DNA of 32,000 bases from Ruminococcus albus 7 = DSM 20455. GTDB taxonomy: Bacteria > Bacillota > Clostridia > Oscillospirales > Ruminococcaceae. The position numbers and the translations under genes are program-made. A model generated the notes under the pieces. The model was given only the letters and a program-made list of their open reading frames with translations, had not been told where the DNA came from and did no database searches. Every line of letters starts with the position of its first letter. The first letter of the stretch is position 1. The DNA lies in the NCBI RefSeq assembly GCF_000179635.2, contig NC_014833.1, forward strand, positions 1,980,001 to 2,012,000, in the 5' to 3' direction. This document shows positions 1 to 30,806 of the stretch, in pieces.

Positions 1-270
1 GTTTTCAAAAGTTGATCTGGTAAACTCATTCAGCCAGCGAATTATCGATCGCAACCCTATCTGAGTCAGCATAAGAATGACGGTAAGCAGTACATAGTAC
101 CTGAATGCCCCTTTATTATGAGCCGTGGCACTGTCAACTATGTTTCGTAAAAACAATGCGTACAGAACTCCGCTTGCTCCAAGCATCGCCTGTACCAGCA
201 TAAGTGCGAGAATATACAGCTTTTTATTTCCCGGTACAGAGTAAAGCCATTTTATCGCGTTATTAGTCAT
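1..270 (-). CDS. ABC transporter permease/ATP-binding protein, first 90 codons only (gene continues past the left edge)
   Basis: Not in the ORF track. The reverse complement of 1..270 is open from ATG 270..268: MTNNAIKWLYSVPGNKKLYILALMLVQAMLGASGVLYALFLRNIVDSATAHNKGAFRYYVLLTVILMLTQIGLRSIIRWLNEFTRSTFEN. The layout (helix, IVDS, helix) matches the N-terminus of an MsbA/MdlB-type exporter TMD. The ATG overlaps the upstream stop (ATGA at 267..270). There is no C39 peptidase domain at the N-terminus. Confidence 0.65.
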   Translation of the reverse strand, partial: MTNNAIKWLYSVPGNKKLYILALMLVQAMLGASGVLYALFLRNIVDSATAHNKGAFRYYVLLTVILMLTQIGLRSIIRWLNEFTRSTFEN

Positions 271-701
271 CTTTTCAGTTTTCTTTTCAGCCATTTCGGT
301 GTTCTCTTTGCTTTAAGGATAAAGGCGCGTACAGGGAAGAAATCACACCACAAATGTACATATATCCGATATCTGATATCTGTCATAGATATCTCTCTGC
401 CGTTGCGTACTACTGCTGTCAGCACACCGATGATATTACGATCTGTTATCCCGTATTCTTTTGAGTATCGGTTATCTCCGCAGATCACATAGTCATCACT
501 GCGTACTTTCAGTACCCTGTGAAGTACGTACTGTCCGCTGTCTCGCTTGTATAGCGGTACATCATACTTTTTCATCCTACCTTCTTTTTTCTCTATGATA
601 AGTATATCCCTGTCCTGTCGTATCAGCGGTTTCATACTGTCGCCAACATTGGTATAGACAAGTCTTCCATCTCGATCTATCACATCTTCAAATTTAATCA
701 T
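267..701 (-). CDS. S24/S26-family serine peptidase, SipW-like (ER/archaeal-type Ser/His) motifs
   Basis: 144-aa ORF. GDSMKP carries the nucleophile Ser motif and YVLHRVLKV resembles the HR box of S26B/SipW-type peptidases. There is no N-terminal TM helix. Start and stop overlap both neighbours by 4 nt. Confidence 0.65.
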   Translation of the reverse strand: MIKFEDVIDRDGRLVYTNVGDSMKPLIRQDRDILIIEKKEGRMKKYDVPLYKRDSGQYVLHRVLKVRSDDYVICGDNRYSKEYGITDRNIIGVLTAVVRNGREISMTDIRYRIYVHLWCDFFPVRAFILKAKRTPKWLKRKLKR

Positions 702-1426
702 TGCATACCCTCATAAGCTGTTTTAGCAGCTGATATATCCATGTTACAGCCAAGATTATACAGTCCGACCGAATCAGCAAGTTTGTCCACCAGATTTAGG
801 GTCTTCATCATTTTAACAGCATCATCAGGTCGGTGGACCTGCTGCATGAGTATCGTATAAGCCTGTCCTGTGGTTACAGGTATTATATGGTTGTCAGCTG
901 CTCTTGTCAGTATACAGATCGCTTTCAACGGAACTGAAATATTTTCTCCTAGTCGGTGTTTTCCGTTGTACGGTGTGCCAAACGCTGTCACACCTTTGTC
1001 AGAAATGTGAAGCAGAGGCTTATCGTCATTTACCATTACGGCACGATCGCCTAAATATTCTCTCCATAGCCTTGTATGAGTGGATTTACCAGTACCTGAC
1101 TTCGCTGTGAACAGGTATCCGACTCCGTCCACTGCAATAACAGAACCGTGAAAAAGTATAGTGTCATAGTTTATCAGTTCTTCCGCGATCTTGCGGTATA
1201 CAGCTAATTCTTCAAGATAACTGTCAGTGAAATGCCTAACGGGTAAACCCTCTATTTTGTCTTCTCTCTCAGACTTTTCCCGTTCAAAGTCAATATCTGA
1301 TCGTGTAGTTGTAATGGAATAGTCTGCAGGCTCGTCTGTCAGATAGTCTGCACAGTAATCGTGTACTTCTTTGTATATTGAATTTATCTCTGCAACTTTG
1401 TCTGCTATCTTATACCTATTTACCAT
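698..1426 (-). CDS. HPr kinase C-terminal-domain-like P-loop kinase (HprK-related kinase)
   Basis: 242-aa ORF with the Walker A-like motif FTAKSGTGKSTHTRLW. Size and context match the HprK-like kinases found next to PqqD-family proteins in RiPP clusters. Confidence 0.65.
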   Translation of the reverse strand: MVNRYKIADKVAEINSIYKEVHDYCADYLTDEPADYSITTTRSDIDFEREKSEREDKIEGLPVRHFTDSYLEELAVYRKIAEELINYDTILFHGSVIAVDGVGYLFTAKSGTGKSTHTRLWREYLGDRAVMVNDDKPLLHISDKGVTAFGTPYNGKHRLGENISVPLKAICILTRAADNHIIPVTTGQAYTILMQQVHRPDDAVKMMKTLNLVDKLADSVGLYNLGCNMDISAAKTAYEGMQ

Positions 1427-2519
1427 ACTTGTTCACAGCCTTTATGATATTTTTGAGATAGTTGCGTCGTATCACCAGGATCCTTCCCCAGCGGTATACG
1501 ATCCCGATAGGATAAAGAACAGGGCATTTGTTTACAAATTTTACCGAACGTTTCATATAATCGACATTCGGAAACATATTTCTTAGGATATAGCCCGACT
1601 TGGTCTGATCCTGCAGTGCCTTTTTCATAGTGTTATCAAAGTTTCCGTATGTGCCTGCTGTCAGGTAGTACATCAGCATTTTTTCTTCATTCTCGGATAA
1701 GTCGGGAAGGTTCTCGGATGAAAACACCTTATCGGCAAGTGTACGCCGTTCTTTTTCAAAATCTTCTATCTTAAGCTTTCTGCATTGTTCTGTTATGTAA
1801 TCAAAGTCAAGAGTATCACCCTTGCTTTTCAAGAAGACATAGCAATCCAGAAGCGAGCGTATACCCGTACCGCTGCTGTTATAGTGTTTCCATTCATGTG
1901 CAGTCATGTATACATAAAAATCTTCGTCAGAAAAATGATAACTGTACTCACATCCTTCATCTTTCAACAGCATACTCTTTGTGTCAGCGTAATAACTGTA
2001 AAGCGGTTCGGGGTGTGAAGTATCAAACAGAGAGGTGTGCAGTTCAAAGTTCAGCACCGGAGGCTTCTGGTATACATCGTGATTGCTTATGCCGTAATGT
2101 TCAGCAGTATATCCGTGTGAAAGCATGATCTTATAAGTCAGTTCCTGCTTATCTTTATCGAACAGTATATCATTGTCCGACATTTCACGCATACCGTTTT
2201 CCGGATATAGATCTTTTAATACCGCACCTTTAAGCGGCATATGCCAGATCCGGTTGTTTTCAAAATCAGAGAGGATAGAGATGCGTTCCATATCCAGATA
2301 GATATTCTTCCGTAAAGCCTTCTTGTATGCCTGATCAAATTTATTATCGACTACGCCGGCGCTTTTCAAGGCGATGTTTACTGCTGCACGTACAGTATGG
2401 TATTTTGCAAGCTGATAAAGTCTTTCAATATCAATGTCCTTTATTCTCACAGAGTCAGGTTCTATACCGTTTACAGCACAGTAAAGCAGATAAATGATGT
2501 CATTATAGTTTTGGTTCAT
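1416..2519 (-). CDS. Nucleotidyltransferase family protein (NTP_transf_5 / PF14907-like)
   Basis: 367-aa ORF. MPLKGAVLKDLYPENGMREMSDNDILF matches the family signature (KG..l...Y....R.msDiDiL). It overlaps the upstream gene by 4 nt and the downstream gene by 11 nt. Confidence 0.65.
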   Translation of the reverse strand: MNQNYNDIIYLLYCAVNGIEPDSVRIKDIDIERLYQLAKYHTVRAAVNIALKSAGVVDNKFDQAYKKALRKNIYLDMERISILSDFENNRIWHMPLKGAVLKDLYPENGMREMSDNDILFDKDKQELTYKIMLSHGYTAEHYGISNHDVYQKPPVLNFELHTSLFDTSHPEPLYSYYADTKSMLLKDEGCEYSYHFSDEDFYVYMTAHEWKHYNSSGTGIRSLLDCYVFLKSKGDTLDFDYITEQCRKLKIEDFEKERRTLADKVFSSENLPDLSENEEKMLMYYLTAGTYGNFDNTMKKALQDQTKSGYILRNMFPNVDYMKRSVKFVNKCPVLYPIGIVYRWGRILVIRRNYLKNIIKAVNKYGK

Positions 2520-2779
2520 TCGTTTATAGCACCTATCGATCGAAGTTTGCTGATAGTATTCGTAACATCACGCTCTACCGTCTTACGATCAGCATCCTTG
2601 TATTCAGCCAGGAGCTTATCTACTACAGCACTTTCAGTGATATCTGACTTAAGGCATTCGATAATGAATGCTGCTGTTTCATTGTTTTTAACGATACCTT
2701 TGAAACTGGTATTGCTTGTGCTGATCATATAGTGTTCACCCTTTGTTTCGTGGGTGAGAAATCTGGGATCTAATTTCAT
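2516..2779 (-). CDS. PqqD-family peptide chaperone (RiPP recognition element, RRE)
   Basis: The track ORF 2516..2824 starts at a TTG. The internal ATG at 2779..2777 (MKLDPRFLTHE...) is preceded by AAAGGA 7 nt upstream. NETAAFIIECLKSDITESAVVDKLLAEYKDADRKTVERDVTNTISKLRSIGAI is the typical PqqD/RRE pattern. Confidence 0.7.
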   Translation of the reverse strand: MKLDPRFLTHETKGEHYMISTSNTSFKGIVKNNETAAFIIECLKSDITESAVVDKLLAEYKDADRKTVERDVTNTISKLRSIGAINE

Positions 2780-2932
2780 AGATATATCCTTTCTATATTC
2801 AGTGGCTTTATGCGTGAAAAACAATTTCTTGTGTATACGATCATTAGTATCATTTGGGTGATAGAAAAAGTCTGTACATTTGAAATTGTGAACTTCTTAT
2901 TCATCAAAACACATATCTTAATTAATAAATTT

Positions 2933-2961
2933 ATATTAACACACATTAGTTAAATTGTCAA
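2933..2961 (-). promoter_or_regulatory. Sigma-A-type promoter of the PqqD/kinase/exporter operon
   Basis: The minus strand reads TTGACA (2961..2956), a 17-nt spacer, then TAATAT (2938..2933) with TG at the extended -10 position (TGtTAATAT). Confidence 0.55.
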
Positions 2962-18699: not shown

Positions 18700-19074
18700 A
18701 TGGATGACAAGCAGCTGCTTATAGAAAAGTATCATCTTATACATGAAAACAATGCGTGGTATTCGGACAGGGAAAACTCTCATAAGCATCTTATTTTTAA
18801 AGATGTTTTCTATGAGCGGAACGATGTCATTGGACTGCTTTTTCGCATAAACAAGCTTTGTGCTGCCAAGGTAAAATACTTTCGTGCAAATATAGATAAA
18901 TTTGATCCGATGAAGTATGACTATAAAAATGGATTTATATCCGTCCCTCTGTGGGATGCTGATTTCCTGAAACATCGTGCATCCGGATTTATCATTGATT
19001 TCAGGTATTTACAGACTATTACTGTATATGAGGATTTTATTGCTCTTTGTGAAGAGCTTGAGCGTTTTGAATGA
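18700..19074 (+). CDS. Hypothetical protein
   Basis: 124-aa ORF with GGTGA 5 nt upstream of the ATG. No motif recognised. Confidence 0.5.
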   Translation: MDDKQLLIEKYHLIHENNAWYSDRENSHKHLIFKDVFYERNDVIGLLFRINKLCAAKVKYFRANIDKFDPMKYDYKNGFISVPLWDADFLKHRASGFIIDFRYLQTITVYEDFIALCEELERFE

Positions 19075-19151
19075 TAATACAAACAAAGCTAAACTGTGGC
19101 ATAAAGCTTATATTAGTGATCTGCCACTGTCATCGAGAAGGAGGTCTACTT

Positions 19152-19631
19152 ATGGAAAAACTGCTGAAACTTTTAAAGTCAAATGCAAGACTCTCAAATG
19201 CCGAACTTGCTGTAATGCTCGGTAAGACTGAGGGTGAGGTCGCCGCGGAGATAGAAAAACTGGAAAAAGACGGAATAATTACCGGTTATACTGCTATAGT
19301 TGACGAAGCTGTGTATGATCCTAATTCTGTTACCGCTTTGATCGAATTAAAAGTTACCCCACAGTCACAATCCGGCTATGATGATATAGCTAAATCCATA
19401 GCAGCTTATGATCAAGTAGAATCCGTACGACTAATGTCAGGAGTATATGACATACTGGTATCAGTTACAGGTACAAATATCCGTGAAGTTTCAAGATTTG
19501 TTGCTGAAAATCTAGCAGCTATGGATGGTGTGCAGTCTACAGCAACTCACTTTCTGCTGAGAAGCTATAAAGTCAATGGTATATCCGTTACTGCTGATGA
19601 TAAAGATGAGAGGGGATTGATGTTCCCATGA
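19152..19631 (+). CDS. Lrp/AsnC-family transcriptional regulator
   Basis: Start refined to ATG 19152 (AGGAGG upstream). The N-terminal HTH LLKSNARLSNAELAVMLGKTEGEVAAEIEKLEKDGIITGY is followed by a RAM/ACT-like domain. Confidence 0.9.
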   Translation: MEKLLKLLKSNARLSNAELAVMLGKTEGEVAAEIEKLEKDGIITGYTAIVDEAVYDPNSVTALIELKVTPQSQSGYDDIAKSIAAYDQVESVRLMSGVYDILVSVTGTNIREVSRFVAENLAAMDGVQSTATHFLLRSYKVNGISVTADDKDERGLMFP

Positions 19632-20809
19632 TAGATTACAATAAGATCCTTTCTCCTGCTATTGTGGATATGAAGCCATCCGGCATACGAAAATTCTTCG
19701 ATATTGCACAGCAGCTGGAGGGTGTTATCTCTCTTGGTGTTGGTGAACCTGATTTCAAAACACCGTGGGTGGTCAGACGTGAAGCGATAAACGTACTGGA
19801 AAAGGGCAGAACTTCTTATACTGCAAATGCAGGTCTCGCAGAACTCCGCAAAGAGATAGCACGTTATTTCAGCGACAGGATAGGTGTAAACTATGATCCC
19901 AATGATGAGATAATCGTAACCGTAGGAGGTTCTGAGGGAATAGATCTTTGTATCAGGTCCATTGTAACAGCAGGTGATGAGGTATTGATAGTTCAGCCTT
20001 CATTTGTCTGTTACAGCCCCATAGTTACACTATGCGGAGGAGTTCCTGTGCCTATAGAGACTAAGGCTGAAAATGAATTCCGTCTTACTGCCGAGGAATT
20101 AAGAAGTAAGATAACCGAAAAAACAAAACTTCTGGTTCTGCCTTTCCCGAATAATCCCACAGGTGCGATCATGCGCAGAGAAGATCTTGAAGAAATTGCA
20201 GAAGTTCTTCGTGATACAAATGTCCTTGTTCTCTCTGATGAGATATATTCTGAGCTTACATACAGCGGAAAGCACGTTTCAATTGCGTCCCTTCCTGGGA
20301 TGAGAGAGCGTACAATTGTCATAAACGGATTTTCAAAGGCTTATGCCATGACAGGCTGGCGACTTGGTATCGCTGCTGCCCCCCGGGAGATAACATCGCA
20401 GATGCTTAAACTCCACCAGTACGCTATTATGTCTTCACCGACAGTCAGTCAGTTCGCAGCGATTACAGCACTAAGGGAATGTGATGAAGATATCGCAAAA
20501 ATGCGTGATGAATACGATATGCGTCGTCGTTATCTCGTTGATGCTTTCAATAAGCTTGGTCTTGATTGTTTTACGCCTCAGGGTGCGTTTTATGTGTTCC
20601 CATGTATCAGAAGTACCGGGCTTTCAAGCAGCGATTTTTGTGAAAAACTGGTTTACAGTAAAAAAGTTGCTGTTGTTCCGGGTAATGCATTCGGTGATTG
20701 TGGCGAGGGTTTTGTGCGTGTCTCCTATGCATATTCTCTAAGCCACCTCAGAGAAGCGATAAAGCGTATCAGCGAATTTTTAGAGGAGCTTAAAAATGGC
20801 ACTGTATAA
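19628..20809 (+). CDS. Class I/II PLP-dependent aminotransferase
   Basis: 393 aa. NPTG motif (FPNNPTGA) and the PLP-lysine motif NGFSKAYAMTGWRLG. ATGA overlap with the AsnC regulator gene. Confidence 0.9.
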   Translation: MIDYNKILSPAIVDMKPSGIRKFFDIAQQLEGVISLGVGEPDFKTPWVVRREAINVLEKGRTSYTANAGLAELRKEIARYFSDRIGVNYDPNDEIIVTVGGSEGIDLCIRSIVTAGDEVLIVQPSFVCYSPIVTLCGGVPVPIETKAENEFRLTAEELRSKITEKTKLLVLPFPNNPTGAIMRREDLEEIAEVLRDTNVLVLSDEIYSELTYSGKHVSIASLPGMRERTIVINGFSKAYAMTGWRLGIAAAPREITSQMLKLHQYAIMSSPTVSQFAAITALRECDEDIAKMRDEYDMRRRYLVDAFNKLGLDCFTPQGAFYVFPCIRSTGLSSSDFCEKLVYSKKVAVVPGNAFGDCGEGFVRVSYAYSLSHLREAIKRISEFLEELKNGTV

Positions 20810-21695
20810 TAATATCAAAGTCAAGGCATACGGCAAAATAAACCTTTTGCTGGATATAATAGGAAGGCGTGAAGACGGATATCATATGCTTAATACCGTC
20901 ATGCAGACGGTAAGTGTGTATGATACGCTTGAACTTTCGATAGACGCTGATTCTCCGGAAGGTATAGAGATTGTTTGCGACAAGGAGGGATTCCCCCTTG
21001 ACAGCAGTAATCTTATCTGGAAGGCAGCTGAGTTATTCAAAGAGTATACGGGTATCACTTTCGGCGGAAAACTTATAGTCAAAGTTGAGAAAAATCTGCC
21101 GTCTCAGGCAGGTATGGGCGGCGGCAGCGCCGATTGCGCGGCCATGCTGAAAGCTATGAATACATTCTTCTGTACACTGAAAGATGAGGATGAACTCTGT
21201 GAACTTGGTGCAAAGCTTGGTGCAGATGTTCCGTTTTGTATAAAGGGCGGTACAAGGCTATGTCAGGGTATAGGTGAGATAACAAATAAGCTGCCATCCA
21301 TAGACTGTGCTTTTGTTATAGTCAAGCCGGATGTCAGTGTTTCCACACCTGAGGCTTATAAGCGTTATGATCTTATGAAATCTCCTCCGAGGAGCCATCT
21401 CGATTATTTCCTTAAATCGCTTGCTTCCGGTAATGTTTTCTCCACTATCATATACCTCTTCAATGTTTTTGAAGCAGCCATAGACCAGCCGGAGATAGCA
21501 CAGGCTAAACAGACCCTAAAAGAGGCAGGTGCCCTCAATACACTTATGACAGGCAGTGGTTCAGCTGTATTCGGTGTTTTTGAAAATGAAAAATATGCTG
21601 AACAAGCTGCTGCAAAACTTTCAGGCAAGTATAATTACTGTGAGGTATGTGTTCCCGTAAAGAGTGGATATGAGCTTATGTGGGTCAACAGATAG
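20796..21695 (+). CDS. ispE: 4-diphosphocytidyl-2-C-methyl-D-erythritol kinase
   Basis: AYGKINLLLDIIGRREDGYH and the GHMP kinase motif PSQAGMGGGSADCAA. Confidence 0.93.
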   Translation: MALYNNIKVKAYGKINLLLDIIGRREDGYHMLNTVMQTVSVYDTLELSIDADSPEGIEIVCDKEGFPLDSSNLIWKAAELFKEYTGITFGGKLIVKVEKNLPSQAGMGGGSADCAAMLKAMNTFFCTLKDEDELCELGAKLGADVPFCIKGGTRLCQGIGEITNKLPSIDCAFVIVKPDVSVSTPEAYKRYDLMKSPPRSHLDYFLKSLASGNVFSTIIYLFNVFEAAIDQPEIAQAKQTLKEAGALNTLMTGSGSAVFGVFENEKYAEQAAAKLSGKYNYCEVCVPVKSGYELMWVNR

Positions 21696-21717
21696 TATAG
21701 GAAAGGAAGGCAATTGA

Positions 21718-22719
21718 ATGAACTATAAATGTAAATTCTGCGGATACAGATTCAAGGACAAGGATGAACAGATATGTCCTGAATGCCTTACTGCCCGTGA
21801 AGATGATATTTCCTGTGGTATTTTCGGTGAAGACGAACACAGCCATGAACGTTTCGATGCTGATAATTTCTATGATGGTCGTGTTGTAAAAAGTGATACG
21901 TTCAAAGACGGTAAAGCAGATTTTCTGAAAGAAGAACGCCGTGAAGAGAACCGCGCTGCTGCTGCAAAGTACGAACGAAGAAATGGTGGAGATATCAACG
22001 TTGAGGCAACTCCGTCTCCTAGACTTTCAATAAATACGCAGTCATATAATTACGGTAACCAGTTTTCTGCAGTAAATAAAACAAATAGCCCTAAGAAGAA
22101 AAGCAGCGGTAAGGGTTGTGCTGTGTTTATTATTATTTTGATAATGCTCGGTATGTTCGGTGATAGGATACCTGAACTGATTGACAAAATCAAGGAAGAA
22201 ATAAATAGCACAAATAACAGTTCTTCCCAAGTCAGCAAAAATACCAAAGAACCCGAGATACAGGGTATTAAGGGTTCAAAATCGATCGACTGTGATTTTG
22301 ACATTTATTTGGAAAGTTTTGATATCAGCAGCATGACCTATGACGAAATGACTATTTTCCAGAAGCCTAATATTTTTTATTCGGATAATGACAACTGGAT
22401 TCCAGTCGAGGAAAGTGATCAGCGTGACTTAAAGTCTATGAAAATGACTTTTGTTTTTGAATACCCCGATCACAAAAAAGTAGAATCAGAAGATGTAGAG
22501 ATAAAAGATATCTACAGCTTTGGATATAATGCCGATAATGAGGCTACTAGTTTATATACCGGTTCAATTAATGATACTAACATTGTTAGTATCAAAAGAA
22601 CTGTTCTCAGCCCCACCATGTTTTTTGATGCAGGTTCTGAATCGGGATACATATTTATTGATCTTGATTATAAGGGCAAGGAGGTTACATTCACTTTCCC
22701 TGTTGAATTAATAGAATAA
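21718..22719 (+). CDS. Zinc-ribbon membrane protein, function unknown
   Basis: N-terminal CKFCGYRF...CPEC zinc ribbon, a single TM helix (GCAVFIIILIMLGMFG) and an extracytoplasmic C-terminal domain. Confidence 0.6.
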   Translation: MNYKCKFCGYRFKDKDEQICPECLTAREDDISCGIFGEDEHSHERFDADNFYDGRVVKSDTFKDGKADFLKEERREENRAAAAKYERRNGGDINVEATPSPRLSINTQSYNYGNQFSAVNKTNSPKKKSSGKGCAVFIIILIMLGMFGDRIPELIDKIKEEINSTNNSSSQVSKNTKEPEIQGIKGSKSIDCDFDIYLESFDISSMTYDEMTIFQKPNIFYSDNDNWIPVEESDQRDLKSMKMTFVFEYPDHKKVESEDVEIKDIYSFGYNADNEATSLYTGSINDTNIVSIKRTVLSPTMFFDAGSESGYIFIDLDYKGKEVTFTFPVELIE

Positions 22720-23624
22720 TGATTAGTAAAGAATTGCTGAAAAGCTGCAAACTTTGTCCTCGTAAATGCGGTGCTGAAAGGTTTGCAGGTAAATTGGGAT
22801 TCTGCCGCGCGGGGGCAGAGATAAAGATAGCACGTGCAGATCTTCATATGTGGGAAGAACCTCCTATCAGCGGTACTAACGGCTCGGGTACTGTCTTTTT
22901 CTCAGGCTGCAATCTGCAGTGCTGTTTTTGCCAGAATCATGTGATATCTGCTGAGGGAAAGGGCTTCGTGCTTACTGCGAAAGAACTTGCCGACACGTTT
23001 CTGATGCTGCAGGATAGGGGTGCTCATAACATAAATCTTGTAACCGCGGCTACCTATGTTCCGCAGATAATTGAAGCTCTTGACATAGCAGGGGACAAGC
23101 TTAACATACCGATCGTTTACAACAGCGGCGGATATGAAAACATTGAAACACTTGAAATGCTGAGAGGCTATGTGGATATCTTCCTGCCTGATCTGAAATA
23201 TTACTCAGGTGAGCTTTCTTCAGATTATTCCGGTGCTTCTGATTACTTTGGGTGTGCATCAAGGTCGCTCATTAAAATGCACGAGCTTGTAGGTTCGCCA
23301 AAGTTTGATGAAAACGGAATAATGAAAAGGGGAGTAATCGTAAGGCATCTTGTATTACCCTCATGTCGTCATGATTCCGCTAAGATCATCGGCTGGCTGG
23401 CAGATAATTTCACACCAAATGAGATACTTATAAGCCTTATGAGTCAGTATACTCCTATGTATAAAGCAAAGGATATCGAGGCGCTGTCCCGCAGAACGTC
23501 AACCTTTGAATATGAGTACGTTTGCAGACTTGTTGAAGGCTGTGGATTTGATGGATTTTTCCAGCAGAGAAGCGCTGCTGAGGACAAATATGTCCCGGAA
23601 TTTTTTGATAAGAAATACTATTGA
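22719..23624 (+). CDS. Radical SAM protein, PflX-type (COG1313, activating-enzyme-like)
   Basis: The FFSGCNLQCCFCQNH cluster supplies CX3CX2C. The 301-aa size is right, and no SPASM-type C-terminal Cys cluster was seen. Confidence 0.8.
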   Translation: MISKELLKSCKLCPRKCGAERFAGKLGFCRAGAEIKIARADLHMWEEPPISGTNGSGTVFFSGCNLQCCFCQNHVISAEGKGFVLTAKELADTFLMLQDRGAHNINLVTAATYVPQIIEALDIAGDKLNIPIVYNSGGYENIETLEMLRGYVDIFLPDLKYYSGELSSDYSGASDYFGCASRSLIKMHELVGSPKFDENGIMKRGVIVRHLVLPSCRHDSAKIIGWLADNFTPNEILISLMSQYTPMYKAKDIEALSRRTSTFEYEYVCRLVEGCGFDGFFQQRSAAEDKYVPEFFDKKYY

Positions 23625-23638
23625 TATCGGAGCAGCAA

Positions 23639-23989
23639 ATGAAAGAATTTAAATTACAGCCATTGCGGATATGTGCAGGTTGGAAAGTAGCCTATAATAA
23701 TTTCTCGGAATATGACCCTGAGAAAGATGAATCGGAATATTCATACGAGCTATATGAGGATCTTTTGCAGCTTGAAAACAACGAGCTTCTTATTGATCTC
23801 GGTTGGTATCCGCATGGTGAACTTGAGGGAAGTTATAAACTGTATATGGTCAATATCACTTTTGAAGCACCCTTTCAACATCCACTTGAAGTTTTTTCTT
23901 CTCGCTCAAAAACGGAGATACTTGAAAAGCTTGAATACTGGACAAATTCTGGCTTTTATCAGAAGTATATCAGGCCTACTGTAAAATGA
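23639..23989 (+). CDS. Hypothetical small protein
   Basis: Start refined to ATG 23639 (GGAG 7 nt upstream); the track starts at TTG 23621. No recognised motif. Confidence 0.5.
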   Translation: MKEFKLQPLRICAGWKVAYNNFSEYDPEKDESEYSYELYEDLLQLENNELLIDLGWYPHGELEGSYKLYMVNITFEAPFQHPLEVFSSRSKTEILEKLEYWTNSGFYQKYIRPTVK

Positions 23990-24768: not shown

Positions 24769-25644
24769 TCACTGCACCAAAGCAGCCAAGAGCCTTAAAT
24801 ACGCACTGTTTCCCAGCTTACGACGGTTGAATTTGTAACAGTATTCGGCAGCATATAACGCTGTGTGGATCTTTTCGTTTCCGTGGTAAGTTCCCATGAT
24901 CATTGCTTTGAAGTTTGAAATAACTTTATGCATCCAGTTCAGCTGACCGCTTGTCGGATCATATGTCTCAAAAACATGGAAGTATTTCTGTGCCAGCGGT
25001 TTCTTGTAACTTCGAGCATTATCACTCTCGATCTTCGAGCCAGCGCGGATATTATCCCTGGCAAATCTACCCACAGTTATACCCTTTAAATTCGGCACAT
25101 CGCTCATTTTAACGTACTCGAGATTTCCTGCTGCGTTCTTTGATAAAGCTACGATCATCTTGACTTTTTCAGTACCTCTGCCGCGCTTTTTACCGTGAGT
25201 CGGAGCACCGAGATAGGTGTCGTCAAGCTCAACTATACCGTCCAGCAAATAGCGTTCTTCACGGCATTTCATAGCTTTTCTGATGCGATGAAGGATGTAC
25301 CATGCAGTCTTGTAGGTCACCCCCAAAGACCTCATCAGCGTAACAGCAGAAACACTGCATTTGTTGCTCATAATGAGGAATGCGGTGACTATCCACAGTC
25401 TGAGCGGAATATGTGTTCTGTGCATAAAAGTTCCGTTTGTGGCGGAAATATCTGCTTTACATAACTTGCAGCGCAGCAGATGACGTGACCTTATCCTGCG
25501 GTACTCAGAGCCACCGCAAAACGGGCAGGCAAAGCCCTTTTCAAAGCGGATATCAAGCAGAAAATCCTTGCAAAAGCTTTCATCTGCGAACTTTGAGTAT
25601 ATCCCATCAAGTGTGATCTCAGGTTTCGGAAATCTTTTTGACAT
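24769..25644 (-). CDS. IS1595-family (ISXO2-like) DDE transposase with N-terminal zinc ribbon
   Basis: 291 aa. Zinc ribbon CPFCGGSEYRR...CKLCK, then the DDE_Tnp_IS1595-like core (VELDDTYLG ... IESDNARSY ... EYCYKFNRR). Confidence 0.9.
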   Translation of the reverse strand: MSKRFPKPEITLDGIYSKFADESFCKDFLLDIRFEKGFACPFCGGSEYRRIRSRHLLRCKLCKADISATNGTFMHRTHIPLRLWIVTAFLIMSNKCSVSAVTLMRSLGVTYKTAWYILHRIRKAMKCREERYLLDGIVELDDTYLGAPTHGKKRGRGTEKVKMIVALSKNAAGNLEYVKMSDVPNLKGITVGRFARDNIRAGSKIESDNARSYKKPLAQKYFHVFETYDPTSGQLNWMHKVISNFKAMIMGTYHGNEKIHTALYAAEYCYKFNRRKLGNSAYLRLLAALVQ

Positions 25645-27018: not shown

Positions 27019-27121
27019 AGTCAATAGATGAGGTTAATCAAAGCTTCAATTGTGTGAACTCTACAATTGAGATGCCTTTATTTTGTGCATATCCAACATA
27101 TTTCGAGGTGGGCTATATTAT

Positions 27122-28426
27122 ATGAAAATATTCTACTATACTTTCGGCTGTAAGGTAAATCAGTACGAAACTGAAAATATCCGTGAAAGATTTGAGCAGG
27201 AGGGAGACACTGCTGCAGCGGATATAGCTTCAGCAGACGTGTGTGTTATAAACAGTTGTACGGTTACCGAACAGGCGGATTCCAAGTGTATGCAGATGCT
27301 GAGAAGGATACGCAAGGTCTCACCTCGGGCTGTAACTGTTCTTGCTGGCTGTTTTCCGCAGGCATTCAGTGATAAAGCAGAGAAGCTTACCGAATGTGAT
27401 ATCATAGTAGGAACAGATGACAAAGGACGTATACCCGAGTTTACAGATAGATTTATGAAAACAGGTGAGAGGATCATAAGTATCCGTAAACATGAAAAGG
27501 GTGAAAAATTTGATACTATGACAAACAAATGCAGCGGAGAAAAAACACGGTCGTATATTAAGATACAGGATGGCTGTGATTGTTATTGCAGTTACTGTAT
27601 AATTCCGTATGCAAGAGGTCATGTCAGATCAAAACCAATGGAAGATGTTGTACGTGAGGCATCGGAGAATATTGCCGCAGGTCATAAGGAGCTTATACTT
27701 ACAGGTATAAATCTGTGTTTTTATGGAAGAGATCTTTCTGAAAGACCAACTTTGACTGATGTTGTAGAGAAAGTATGTTCACTGGACGGTGAGTTCCGAG
27801 TAAGACTTGGTTCTATAGAGCCTGAAATGATGCTTGCCGATGATATAAAACGTTTATCGGTGTTGGATAAACTTTGTCCGCATTTTCATCTTTCATTGCA
27901 AAGCGGATGTGACAGTACTCTGAAGAATATGAACAGACGATATGACTCTTCTGGATATGCTTCACTATGTGCTACTATTAGAAATTATTTTCCTGATTGT
28001 GCATTAACTACTGATATAATGGTGGGCTTTCCCGGTGAGGATGAAAAGGCTTTTGAAGAATCGCTTTCATTTGTTGAAGAGATAGCTTTTGCAGAAGCTC
28101 ATATATTTCCTTATTCAAGACGTGCAGGTACTAAAGCAGACAGTTTTACAGATCAGGTACCTCAGCATATAAAACATGAAAGGGCAAAGCGTATGGCTGA
28201 GGTATGTGCTGAATCCAAATCCGGGTTTTTAGCTGGTTGTGTCGGAAAAGTATTTGATGTTCTTTTTGAACGAGAGACCGAGGCAGATTGGCACAGCGGC
28301 CATGCACCGAATTATGTTACAGTGAAAGTAAAGAGAAACAGTCCGTCAGATTCACTTCGCAGACAGATTCGTAAGGTTCGTATAATATCGTCAGATAAAG
28401 AAGTTTGCTATGGAGAATTTGTATAG
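27122..28426 (+). CDS. mtaB: tRNA threonylcarbamoyladenosine methylthiotransferase (MtaB-type radical SAM MTTase)
   Basis: Start refined to ATG 27122. The N-terminal UPF0004 domain has FYYTFGCKVNQYETE, the radical SAM cluster is QDGCDCYCSYCIIPYARG, and a C-terminal TRAM-like domain follows. Confidence 0.85.
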   Translation: MKIFYYTFGCKVNQYETENIRERFEQEGDTAAADIASADVCVINSCTVTEQADSKCMQMLRRIRKVSPRAVTVLAGCFPQAFSDKAEKLTECDIIVGTDDKGRIPEFTDRFMKTGERIISIRKHEKGEKFDTMTNKCSGEKTRSYIKIQDGCDCYCSYCIIPYARGHVRSKPMEDVVREASENIAAGHKELILTGINLCFYGRDLSERPTLTDVVEKVCSLDGEFRVRLGSIEPEMMLADDIKRLSVLDKLCPHFHLSLQSGCDSTLKNMNRRYDSSGYASLCATIRNYFPDCALTTDIMVGFPGEDEKAFEESLSFVEEIAFAEAHIFPYSRRAGTKADSFTDQVPQHIKHERAKRMAEVCAESKSGFLAGCVGKVFDVLFERETEADWHSGHAPNYVTVKVKRNSPSDSLRRQIRKVRIISSDKEVCYGEFV

Positions 28427-28778: not shown

Positions 28779-28807
28779 TTGACAATTTAATCGGTATATG
28801 ATAAAAT
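28779..28807 (+). promoter_or_regulatory. Sigma-A-type promoter of the LRR protein gene
   Basis: TTGACA (28779..28784), 17 nt, TAAAAT (28802..28807). This leaves a leader of about 140 nt. Confidence 0.55.
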
Positions 28808-28950
28808 ATGCATATAAATGGAATCATATCTGATTTATTTTCACTAATTAGTAAATGATAAAAAATAAATCTCAGCTGTTTCAGTATTATAATGGTTTTC
28901 GGCAGCGTATATGCCGCTTATCTACTTTATAACTAAGGAGGAATTGATCA

Positions 28951-30588
28951 ATGAATAATCATGTCGGATGGAAAAAAACAACAGCATTTATCATGGCATT
29001 GACTCTTGTAGCAGGCAATATGCCTGCAAACGTAGGAGGTTTTTTTACAGTAGGCACAGGCATTGTAGCTACAGCAGTACCGCCGTCTGAAAATAATTCT
29101 GGGATATTGTTTGAAAATGCATCCATAATTAATTCATGGACAAGCGGAGATTGTACCGTGACACTTGATTCTGAAGGTACTCTGACAGTATCCAAAAATG
29201 AAGGCAGCGGCAATGGCGCTATGGCGGATTATGGTTCTGCAGCTGACAGACCGTGGCACAGTATTTCTTCTGATATCAAGTCAGTAATCATCGAAGATGG
29301 TGTAACAACTGTTGGCAACGCTGCTTTTGCTTTATTTAGTGGATTAAATTCTGTAACTATTCCAGGTTCAGTTGAAATGTTAGGTTACAGATCTTTTTAT
29401 AGCTGTAATTTATCATCTCTTCATTTTGATACGAGAACAAATGATTTGACGCTTAATGTTCAAGCATTTAAAACCAATCCATTTACAACTACCGATATCA
29501 CTCCCAATAATTTGCAGTATGTTCCAATTAATAATTCAAATGCAGAACCTGCTTCTCTTACAGCAGATGCCCTTAAAAACGGTAATATTATCATAAAGGG
29601 TGTTTCTATAGTATATACACCTGTTGAAGCTAAAGCACCAACTTATGAAGAAAACGGAAATATCGCATATTATGTTGGTACAGATGACAAATATTATACT
29701 TATGATGAAACAACATCCTCATATACTGAAATAGATCTTGAAGACACTGTTATCCCAAAGCTGGAAATGCAGCCCTCTATGAATATAGTTGTTGATTCTT
29801 CTAAGATGGATCTGAATTTCTATGTTCCTATAGCTGACGATTATTCGATTTCAGATTATACTGTAACATACGGCGGCGAAGATCAGACACTTTCTGAGAT
29901 TCAGTTAAGTAATAAGAATTATGGTGTGTTTACTGTAAAGTGTGCCGCTAAGAATATGACAGATGAAAAACAATTCGTCATCAAAAACGGAGATACTCAG
30001 ATATTCAGCGAAAATATTTCTGCTGCAGGTTATCTTAAACAGCTGAAGGACCATTCGACTTACGGTCCTATGGTCAAATCCATGCTTCGATATGGTGCAG
30101 CCGCACAGAATTATTTCGGATACAAAACAGATGATCCGGCAAACAGTGGTATCGAAGGTTATGGACTTGATACTCTGAAAGAATTAAAAATTGATGATAA
30201 TTCACCTTCTCAAGTTCAATATTCTCAGGCATTTGACCTTCAGTATTCTTCATATTATGGAATGAATATGACCTATGATTATGATACATCACTGCTTATT
30301 GCATTCAGGATCACAGGCAGCTATGAAGCATCTAAGGCTGAGCTTGAAGAAAAATTCGTAAGTGAAACTTACGAAGTCACCTATGAAAAAGACAACACCG
30401 GCAATTTTATTATCGTTAAGGTAGCAAATATCCCGATCAAGAAGCTTGGTGAACCTGTCTTTACTTTTGGCGGTGTTGATGTCAAGGCAACTGATTATCT
30501 TGCAAGGATAGCAAATAATCTCGAAAAATCCGATAAATTGCGAGATCTGTGCAGAGGACTTTATGCGTTTTATGCTTCTGCAACTTAA
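28951..30588 (+). CDS. Secreted BspA-type leucine-rich-repeat (LRR_5-like) protein
   Basis: 545 aa. N-terminal signal/TM segment (TTAFIMALTLVAGNMPA). SVIIEDGVTTVGNAAFALFSGLNSVTIPGSVEMLGYRSFYSC is the BspA-like LRR pattern. RBS AAGGAGG. Confidence 0.8.
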   Translation: MNNHVGWKKTTAFIMALTLVAGNMPANVGGFFTVGTGIVATAVPPSENNSGILFENASIINSWTSGDCTVTLDSEGTLTVSKNEGSGNGAMADYGSAADRPWHSISSDIKSVIIEDGVTTVGNAAFALFSGLNSVTIPGSVEMLGYRSFYSCNLSSLHFDTRTNDLTLNVQAFKTNPFTTTDITPNNLQYVPINNSNAEPASLTADALKNGNIIIKGVSIVYTPVEAKAPTYEENGNIAYYVGTDDKYYTYDETTSSYTEIDLEDTVIPKLEMQPSMNIVVDSSKMDLNFYVPIADDYSISDYTVTYGGEDQTLSEIQLSNKNYGVFTVKCAAKNMTDEKQFVIKNGDTQIFSENISAAGYLKQLKDHSTYGPMVKSMLRYGAAAQNYFGYKTDDPANSGIEGYGLDTLKELKIDDNSPSQVQYSQAFDLQYSSYYGMNMTYDYDTSLLIAFRITGSYEASKAELEEKFVSETYEVTYEKDNTGNFIIVKVANIPIKKLGEPVFTFGGVDVKATDYLARIANNLEKSDKLRDLCRGLYAFYASAT

Positions 30589-30605
30589 GAAAGAGGTGAA
30601 CTTTA

Positions 30606-30728
30606 ATGGATAAGAAATATGTTACTCCCGAAATGGAGATCACCGAGTTTTTGAATGAAGATGTGATAACAACATCTACACCTGATTATACTGATCCCAA
30701 TACACCCGGCGGTGAAGGCTGGGGCTGA
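30606..30728 (+). CDS. 40-aa acidic peptide, candidate RiPP (lasso-like) precursor
   Basis: Not in the ORF track (<60 aa). AAGAGGTGA lies 6 nt before the ATG. Product: MDKKYVTPEMEITEFLNEDVITTSTPDYTDPNTPGGEGWG, stop TGA 30726..30728. A terminator follows 40 nt downstream. Confidence 0.55.
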   Translation: MDKKYVTPEMEITEFLNEDVITTSTPDYTDPNTPGGEGWG

Positions 30729-30767
30729 TAATACAACAATTAATCAGGATACAGTATTAGAGATATG

Positions 30768-30806
30768 CGCTGCGTCATTTCCATGTAGGGTTGACGCAGC
30801 GTTTTT
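30768..30806 (+). terminator. Rho-independent terminator after the LRR gene / small peptide ORF
   Basis: CGCTGCGTCA (30768..30777) pairs with TGACGCAGCG (30792..30801), followed by TTTTT. Confidence 0.8.

Follow-up and report, generated by a model that had tools for sequence, protein, structure and literature searches.

Linear polyphosphorylated peptides (LPPs) are peptides made by ribosomes and modified after translation (RiPPs), encoded by lppA-K-B-S-D-N clusters in Paenibacillus alginolyticus and in other Bacilli (Popov et al., Nat Commun, May 2026, PMC13381572). These clusters encompass a precursor (A), an HprK-like kinase (K), a discrete RiPP recognition element (RRE; B), a SipW-like peptidase (S), an MsbA-like exporter (D) and a nucleoside triphosphate (NTP) transferase (N), and about one third of them adjoin a lasso-peptide cluster (PMC13381572). 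As shown in Bacillus subtilis, Ser3 of the core receives up to four phosphates from LppK; LppS cuts the leader after Thr-1, a reaction that requires LppB and is abolished by the substitutions S29A, H68A and D93A; binding by LppB requires a YxxP motif; and deletion of the NTP transferase brought no change (PMC13381572). The published set comprises 199 peptidases from a 2019 database and is centered on a 126-member, mostly Bacilli cluster, with Clostridial-type sequences found only in small side clusters of the similarity network (PMC13381572). Here we analyze a 32,000-nt stretch of the genome of Ruminococcus albus 7 = DSM 20455 (NC_014833.1, positions 1,980,001 to 2,012,000; hereafter, the window), in which positions 1-2961 carry, on the minus strand, an operon of five genes for an RRE, a nucleotidyltransferase, a kinase, a peptidase and an ATP-binding cassette (ABC) exporter. 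We estimate at about 75% the probability that the operon is a Clostridial member of an LPP-type RiPP pathway, representing a divergent rumen and gut branch. An earlier note on this DNA had envisaged, as one of two alternatives, a stand-alone, uncharacterized system that binds a peptide by its leader, phosphorylates or nucleotidylates it, and then cleaves and exports it; this scheme matches the published lpp experiments (PMC13381572), but, for the same reason, the system can no longer be called uncharacterized.

The five minus-strand genes follow the order B-N-K-S-D, with coordinates and overlaps exactly as originally read. They encode a PqqD-type, LppB-like RRE of 87 aa (2516-2779; ATG at 2779 behind an AAAGGA Shine-Dalgarno sequence, with TTG at 2824 as an unlikely alternative start); an NTP_transf_5 nucleotidyltransferase (Pfam PF14907) of 367 aa, resembling LppN and PsmN (1416-2519); an LppK-like P-loop kinase of the ScmC type with the HprK/PEPCK fold, 242 aa (698-1426); a small SipW/S26-type Ser-His-Asp peptidase of 144 aa, a putative LppS-like leader peptidase (267-701); and the N-terminus of an MsbA-like, LppD-like ABC exporter (PF00664; 1-294) that leaves the window at its left edge. 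The sequence TCAT, that is, ATGA on the coding strand, fuses genes at 2516-2519, 698-701 and 267-270, and an 11-nt overlap lies at 1416-1426; for the exporter, the gene caller favors the ATG at 294, whereas the overlap-based reading gives 1-270.

For comparison with the characterized system, the LppS sequence from the supplement of the LPP paper led to a Paenibacillus locus (L087) with an LppS that shares 97% identity with the P. alginolyticus protein; the proteins of this locus served as the BLASTP reference, and its neighboring lasso cluster provided PbaK, PbaN, PbaC and PbaB2. The kinase, which the earlier note had called HprK-like, scores below the curated cut-offs of the hidden Markov models (HMMs) Hpr_kinase_C (E 0.0038) and NCBIfam ScmC (E 1.2e-7); the latter, a SynChlorMet model, is the best NCBIfam match, at 31 bits against a 125-bit cut-off. 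The assignment is nevertheless upheld by independent evidence. Precomputed annotation places the kinase in PF27840 (ScmC), a newer Pfam family to which LppK also belongs, whereas the lasso kinase PbaK carries PF07475. An AlphaFold2 model built from 32 homologues has a mean predicted local distance difference test (pLDDT) score of 96, and all its best Foldseek matches are ATP-dependent phosphoenolpyruvate carboxykinases (PEPCK) and HPr kinase/phosphorylases (HprK/P). BLASTP aligns the protein with LppK at 30% identity over 158 aa (E 1e-16), compared with 33% over 52 aa (E 7e-5) for PbaK. On the strength of PF27840 membership, the predicted fold and the similarity to LppK, we regard the family assignment as confirmed. 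The residues H93, G111, G113, K114, T116 and D135 are invariant and Walker A is intact; H93, K114, D135 and Walker A are kept across homologues with identity as low as 38%.

The kinase family is large, with 7,343 representatives at E <=1e-3 and 866 at E <=1e-30 in a scan of 1.84 billion representatives, and the nearest homologues come from Ruminococcus and other rumen Clostridia. Three of the homologous proteins (P0046, P0102 and P0115) belong to one Ruminococcus metagenome-assembled genome (locus tags IJ555_) with at least three paralogous kinases, which are 77-79% identical to the window kinase. Several homologues are joined to radical S-adenosylmethionine (radical-SAM), S24/S26 peptidase or PqqD domains (P0156, P0262, P0265, P0270, P0152 and P0134), the fusions in P0156, P0262, P0265 and P0270 being to radical-SAM domains. 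These rare kinase-peptidase, kinase-RRE and radical-SAM-kinase fusions imply that the parts are functionally tied together, and, judging by the sequences, the kinase module seems to be reused in radical-SAM peptide pathways.

The small peptidase likewise falls below curated cut-offs (Peptidase_S24, E 0.015; sigpep_I_arch, a model for signal peptidase I of the archaeal type, E 7.9e-6), but its proposed S24/S26 affiliation is sustained by comparison with LppS, both in an hhalign comparison of the peptidase family with LppS (97.6% probability, E 3e-12) and in direct BLASTP (26% identity, E 3.8e-10). Its S22, H61 and D76 are invariant, and in an alignment with 33 LppS-family proteins they fall on the invariant S, H and D columns that correspond to S29, H68 and D93 in the numbering of the LPP paper. 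A model built with LppS-family sequences (pLDDT 80) adopts a fold matching LexA, SpsB, SEC11 and SipA, all of the S24/S26 clan (clan SF). We take the peptidase assignment, too, as confirmed, given the hhalign match, the catalytic columns and the predicted LexA/signal-peptidase fold. The distance from the Bacilli proteins is considerable: edges within cluster 1 of the published similarity network have E values of about 1e-23 or better, against 3.8e-10 for the window peptidase and LppS, and the single Ruminococcus peptidase in the published table, SCH01704.1, which is 36% identical to the window peptidase, lies in side cluster 9.

Two further assignments in the earlier note, PqqD and PF14907, held without difficulty, with HMM matches above the Pfam cut-offs for the RRE (E 1e-12) and the nucleotidyltransferase (E 3.8e-43), the latter containing a DND (DxD-type) motif. 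Kinases and nucleotidyltransferases of these kinds are indeed described in the literature as lasso-peptide tailoring enzymes, as stated in the earlier note; a search of the literature on ScmC/SynChlorMet and PF14907 turned up nothing useful. The RRE family profile matches the lasso B1 proteins TbiB1 (2e-6) and TfuB1, and also PbaB1 (9x90) and LppB (9x8z, 2.9e-3), these two PDB entries being reached, weakly, by the family profile only; PDB sequence searches with the window RRE alone or with the candidate window peptide introduced below did not find LppB or LppA. In direct BLASTP the RRE is 28% identical to LppB (E 0.16), and the nucleotidyltransferase is 22% identical to LppN (E 1.6e-4) and 25% identical to PbaN from the lasso cluster (E 4.8e-7).

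To read past the left edge of the window we used a 55-kb contig that encodes the same proteins (L001). In this copy, PF00664 starts at residue 29 of the exporter and is followed by PF00005, with no C39 domain, so the protein begins with its transmembrane domain as proposed; its nucleotide-binding domain is 31% identical to that of LppD (E 2e-44). Beyond the ABC gene, the opposite strand carries genes for a nitroreductase, a DUF1349 protein and a hydrolase, and the trp operon comes next; neither a cyclase nor a B2 protease nor a precursor was found in the left flank of this contig. Searches with PbaC and PbaB2 (tblastn) yielded no match in the 32-kb window, in agreement with the earlier note, or within about 8 kb in the 80 related loci described below. 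Because the contig runs into unrelated genes and neither the window nor the 80 loci contain a cyclase or B2 homologue, the proposal of a lasso cluster that continues, with cyclase, B2 protease and precursor, past the left edge is refuted, and the canonical cyclase/B2 pair that would have made this an already described lasso cluster was not found there. What this flank did reveal is a frameshift in the exporter, about 436 nt to the left of window position 1: a +1 shift in a poly-A run inside the transmembrane domain (L001 12943-12963), where this strain has 8 A and sister strains have 7 A, which splits the gene into open reading frames (ORFs) of 248 and 318 aa. In sister strains from sheep-rumen metagenomes (L095 and L096, at 5850), with a 99% identical kinase, the exporter is intact at 576 aa. 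Since the poly-A slip breaks the exporter, export may be lost or phase-variable in this strain; the intact exporter of near-identical sister strains suggests that the lesion either arose recently or can be undone by slippage.

A scan of species-representative genomes yielded at least 583 related loci, of which 80 were retained for comparison, and the five window proteins were mapped onto these; many of the incomplete sets are cut by contig ends. All five genes are present in 22 of the 80 loci and at least four in 43. The order kinase-RRE-peptidase-ABC-nucleotidyltransferase (K-B-S-D-N, as in lppKBSDN) is found in 20 of the 22 complete sets. The earlier note had asked whether the five-gene order recurs in other genomes without a cyclase; the complete gene set does recur, in no case with a cyclase or B2 protease, but the exact order of the window is found in only two of the 22 (L008 and L013). 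Clustering of all flanking ORFs of the related loci brought out no other consistently linked enzyme. A radical-SAM gene adjoins the cluster in 6 of the 80 loci, and in one of them (L013) we read a Cys-rich, SPASM-like C-terminus.

The relatives also revealed a conserved family of candidate precursors. A leader HMM built from 29 peptides adjoining related clusters matches 32 of the 80 loci, each with one to six small ORFs, which, like lppA, mostly lie immediately upstream of the kinase gene. In L026 (2215-3223) and L075 (685-1336), five or six precursor genes stand in tandem, sharing one leader but differing in their short acidic cores. The Clostridial leader follows the consensus M-x-E-K-Y-x-x-P-E-M-E-V-[VI]-x-F-x-x-E-D-V-I-T-x-S, with invariant Tyr, Phe, Glu-Asp and Ser, and is followed by 5-25 mostly acidic residues. 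The invariant Tyr and Ser are separated by 19 residues, compared with 18 in LppA, a near-equal spacing that fits a conserved geometry. A profile search recovered 3,587 distinct clusters of such precursors, none of which carries a name, and we found no family for them in Pfam or NCBIfam. In 18 clusters that lack a match to the leader HMM, no shared small ORF of another type occurs upstream of the kinase gene, and about half of the complete clusters in the relatives have no adjacent precursor. In Ruminococcus flavefaciens Y1, the stretch immediately upstream of the kinase gene (L010 7689-7927) contains a direct repeat of about 60 nt and no recognizable precursor; a gene upstream resembles family-2 glycosyltransferases, judged from sequence alone.

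Within the window, the leader HMM has one match, a 40-aa candidate precursor, MDKKYVTPEMEITEFLNEDVITTSTPDYTDPNTPGGEGWG, encoded on the plus strand at 30606-30728 (E 1.8e-9), 28 kb from the operon. It can be written as MDKKYVTPEMEITEFLNEDVITTS-TPDYTDPNTPGGEGWG. Thus, the earlier statement that the operon has no convincing adjacent precursor was correct as far as adjacency goes, but a plausible precursor does exist within the window. Its gene is preceded by a GAGGTG Shine-Dalgarno sequence and starts 17 nt past the end of a plus-strand gene (28951-30588) for a secreted BspA-type leucine-rich repeat (LRR) protein of 545 aa (Pfam LRR_5). A promoter-like site with 11 of 12 consensus positions and a TG precedes the LRR gene (28779-28807, plus strand), and an intrinsic terminator follows the candidate precursor (30767-30806, plus strand; hairpin of -23.1 kcal/mol, z -4.5, then five U), so that the two genes are predicted to be co-transcribed as their own unit, 28779-30806. 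The peptide gene is called in assemblies in 40 index blocks and comes after the LRR gene in all six places shown. Across strains, the LRR gene is 94-96% identical, the peptide gene 100% identical and the downstream DNA 99.5-99.8% identical; because the DNA of the peptide gene is the same in all strains found, synonymous changes provide no evidence of coding. Between the operon and the distal precursor gene lies an IS1595-family transposase gene (24769-25644, minus strand), which might be related to a rearrangement that separated the two.

The proteins encoded around the precursors follow a recurrent pattern. As is the case in the window, the precursor of the relatives usually comes after a large secreted protein of the LRR or transglutaminase-like kind, and the window LRR protein is similar in its C-terminal part to the large secreted proteins immediately upstream of precursors in L035, L037, L042 and L044. 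Relatives often encode, between the precursor and kinase genes, a lipoprotein of 150-190 aa that has a lipobox, a long linker rich in Ser, Thr, Glu and Pro, and a tail of 10-20 residues resembling the neighboring core, often as ELPF[VI]Pxx. In L055 (7178-7946), for instance, the core GELPFVPAE is matched by a lipoprotein tail ending in IELPFVPAF, and a like pattern is seen in L035 (5341-6075), L023 (7405-7960) and L047 (7247-7980); lipoproteins are also present in L020, L032, L037, L039, L042, L043, L045, L061 and L070. No core-like lipoprotein was found in the window. These associations with LRR or transglutaminase-like proteins and lipoproteins, which are absent from the account in the 2026 paper (PMC13381572), hint at a role in surface recognition.

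By analogy with the experiments in Paenibacillus and Bacillus, we can propose how the system would work. The 87-aa RRE would bind a Yxx(P)x(M/L) motif in the precursor leader, whereupon the ScmC/HprK-like kinase, using ATP, would phosphorylate, once or several times, the invariant Ser at the end of the leader block, which is Ser24 in the window peptide. With the RRE presenting the leader, the SipW-like Ser/His/Asp peptidase would cut near the ...EDVIT-T-S junction, tentatively after Thr22 of the window peptide; this position, we infer, is suitable because a small residue (Thr, Ala, Cys or Val) stands ahead of the variable residue and the Ser, as befits the -1 site of a signal-peptidase-type enzyme. 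The NTP_transf_5 enzyme may decorate the phosphate with a sugar or nucleotide, in analogy to PsmN, which adds a hexose to the phosphate of pseudomycoidin, and the MsbA-like ABC transporter would export the product, which would stay linear because no macrocyclase takes part. The likely substrate in this strain is the 40-aa peptide encoded at 30606-30728, in the separate unit with the LRR surface protein; its pairing with the operon, like the modified residue and the cleavage site, is what we infer from the conserved features.

Several observations weigh against assigning the operon to an LPP-type pathway with this substrate. The window proteins are only 22-31% identical to the characterized Lpp proteins, the match of the RRE to LppB is weak (0.16; profile 2.9e-3) and not better than that to lasso B1 proteins, and the nucleotidyltransferase is slightly nearer to PbaN of the lasso cluster than to LppN, itself without detectable activity in the published system (PMC13381572). 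The substrates differ as well: the Bacilli leader, YxxPxVLxHQxIxFET|xxS, contrasts with the Clostridial YxxPEMEV[VI]xFxxEDVITxS, in which the Pro is replaced in about one third of the members and the FET cleavage motif is not kept, and the Clostridial cores are short (about 8-25 aa) and acidic, whereas the Bacilli LPP cores are about 45 aa long and rich in Gly, Asn, Pro and Lys. No precursor adjoins the operon in the window, nor in L007 and L011, which have the same gene order and for which the upstream flank was fetched. The paralogous kinases in a single Ruminococcus genome indicate that several clusters per genome are possible, which weakens the pairing of one cluster with one peptide. Finally, the 8-A frameshift is present in all six places for which DNA of this strain was fetched, and gene calls split in the same manner occur on 24 contigs of the strain.

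The last of these points leads to the question of whether the cluster functions at all in this strain. With the exporter broken by the +1 frameshift (8 A versus 7 A) in every place examined and no precursor adjacent to the operon, the cluster could be a decaying, inactive remnant that makes no product. We find this rather unlikely, given that the remaining four genes are undamaged and keep every conserved residue, that sister strains with a 99% identical kinase have the intact 576-aa exporter, that the peptide gene is itself intact and equipped with a ribosome-binding site, promoter and terminator, and that the lack of an adjacent precursor is shared by about half of the complete clusters in relatives. 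A different concern is the identity of the system. The combination of PqqD, HprK-like kinase and NTP_transf_5 is typical of Firmicute lasso clusters, the RRE profile matches lasso B1 proteins best, and lasso clusters exist in Ruminococcus species, so the operon could be imagined as the tailoring and export half of an ordinary paeninodin-type cluster with the cyclase, B2 and precursor located just outside the window. Such an arrangement is hardly tenable, however: on L001 the rest of the ABC gene gives way to unrelated genes, PbaC and PbaB2 homologues are missing from the 32-kb window and from the surroundings of the clusters in the 80 loci (within about 8 kb), the kinase is of the LppK/ScmC rather than the PbaK/Hpr_kinase_C type, an S26-type peptidase stands in place of B2, and most candidate cores are too short for a lasso or lack a well-placed Asp or Glu acceptor.

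The kinase raises a further alternative. SynChlorMet cassettes are built around radical-SAM/SPASM enzymes, and the ScmC-like protein might be an accessory or scaffold of such a system rather than a peptide kinase, with the window operon as a remnant. LppK, the nearest characterized homologue and a member of the same Pfam family, is a proven Ser kinase, and the Walker A motif and other catalytic-looking residues of the window kinase are invariant; furthermore, no radical-SAM gene adjoins the window operon or the cluster in 74 of the 80 loci. We therefore consider this scenario unlikely, even though SynChlorMet ScmC is the best NCBIfam match, some homologues (P0156, P0262, P0265 and P0270) are fused to radical-SAM domains, and a radical-SAM gene does adjoin 6 of the 80 clusters, with the SPASM-like C-terminus in L013. 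The true substrates could also be proteins, for instance the lipoproteins or large surface proteins whose genes neighbor related clusters, such that the system decorates the cell surface. The core-like ends of the lipoproteins (for example, ELPF[VI]Pxx), the consistent adjacency of large secreted LRR or transglutaminase-like proteins and the length of published LPP precursors, up to 200 aa (PMC13381572), would all accord with this. Yet an ABC exporter and a leader peptidase fit a small-peptide pathway, the window has no such lipoprotein, and a cytoplasmic, RRE-guided pathway is not expected to recognize lipoproteins that have Sec/lipobox signals but lack a Yxx(P) leader, which makes decoration of proteins quite improbable. 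An LPP-type pathway acting on a small peptide thus appears to be the best account of the operon.

With regard to the remainder of the window, a promoter-like site (TTGACA, 17 nt, TAATAT, with the TG of an extended -10; 10 of 12 consensus positions) lies on the minus strand at 2933-2961, about 150 nt upstream of the RRE gene. The site is present as the earlier note had it, but a scan found such matches in the AT-rich operon region to be no more frequent than in shuffled sequence, so that it is position that speaks for this promoter. We rejected as a precursor a 42-aa ORF at 2776-2904 (minus strand) in the operon's 5' leader, whose stop codon overlaps the RRE start (ATGA): it has neither a Shine-Dalgarno sequence nor a match to the leader motif, the upstream regions of loci with the same gene order (L007, L008, L011 and L013) are unrelated, and it is unlikely to be a gene. 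Elsewhere the window carries housekeeping genes, with spoIIIA, ligA, purL, an LD-carboxypeptidase gene, an aminotransferase/GHMP-kinase operon, the IS1595 transposase gene and a gene for a MiaB-like enzyme. Contrary to the earlier note, which had excluded radical-SAM/SPASM enzymes from the window, there are two radical-SAM genes (22719-23624, and the MiaB-like one at 27083-28426), but neither adjoins the operon and no SPASM-type domain is reported for either. The plus-strand operon at 18700-23989, encoding an AsnC-type regulator, a class I/II aminotransferase, a GHMP kinase, a 333-aa protein without a Pfam match and a 301-aa radical-SAM protein, appears to be unrelated to the RRE/kinase system.

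If the operon belongs to an LPP-type pathway, then a class of peptides defined in 2026 from about 126 mostly Bacilli clusters has a distant version that is very common in rumen and gut Clostridia, with at least 583 loci and about 3,600 precursor clusters. This version offers many small, chemically tractable substrates for learning what the kinase, the peptidase and the nucleotidyltransferase make; the recurring LRR proteins and core-tailed lipoproteins provide a first handle on biological function; and genome-mining tools that demand an enzyme-adjacent precursor would miss clusters of this kind. On a more speculative note, the Clostridial branch could stand apart from the Bacilli LPPs as a family of its own, and a much larger one, producing short, acidic, phosphorylated and perhaps glycosylated linear peptides. 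Their genes would be coupled to those of variable LRR or transglutaminase-like surface proteins and of lipoproteins that bear a copy of the core on a long tether, and in some lineages, including this one, the peptide gene would have moved to its surface partner. We regard this extended scenario as doubtful, but, if true, the peptide would be a ligand in cell-surface recognition or signaling of rumen and gut Clostridia and not an antibiotic.

Among the known systems, SynChlorMet ScmC (TIGR04249) and HPr-rel-A (TIGR04352/TIGR04353) have in common with the window a kinase-like superfamily paired with a PqqD-type protein, but the scores of the window kinase are far below the curated cut-offs of these models, and the window operon is devoid of radical-SAM genes. 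The peptidase has the Ser/His(/Asp) set, the SM.P and HR motifs, the GDN box and the fold of SipW and S26B signal peptidase I; unlike those enzymes, it is only 144 aa long, lacks an N-terminal membrane anchor and is encoded within a RiPP operon, and its homologue LppS cuts an RRE-presented leader in the cytoplasm, not a Sec signal peptide. With the paeninodin and pseudomycoidin lasso clusters the operon shares a discrete RRE of the B1 type, the kind that reads a [Y/W]xxP leader, an HprK-like Ser-polyphosphorylating kinase (PadeK/PsmK), an NTP_transf_5 enzyme of the kind that adds hexose to the phosphate (PsmN) and an ABC exporter. It differs from them in lacking the Asn-synthetase-like cyclase and the transglutaminase-like B2 protease, the latter replaced by a signal-peptidase-like enzyme that would remove the leader, in its PF27840 rather than PF07475 kinase, and in the modified Ser, which would lie at the leader-core junction and not at the C-terminus.

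The closest counterpart is the LPP cluster, with which the window shares the ScmC/HprK-like kinase, the discrete PqqD RRE, the SipW-like peptidase, the MsbA-like exporter and the NTP_transf_5 enzyme, without a cyclase. The precursors, too, are alike: an RRE motif with a Tyr lies in the N-terminal part, and 18-19 residues beyond this Tyr comes an invariant Ser. The K-B-S-D-N order of LPP clusters is also usual in the Clostridial relatives, whereas the window has B-N-K-S-D and its precursor 28 kb off. The genomic surroundings diverge as well, with LRR and transglutaminase-like surface proteins and lipoproteins next to the Clostridial clusters and capsule loci next to those of Bacilli, as do the hosts, rumen and gut Clostridia in the one case and Bacilli in the other. 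The pathway logic is already known from the LPPs, and what is new here is a large, unannotated Clostridial family with chemically different substrates.

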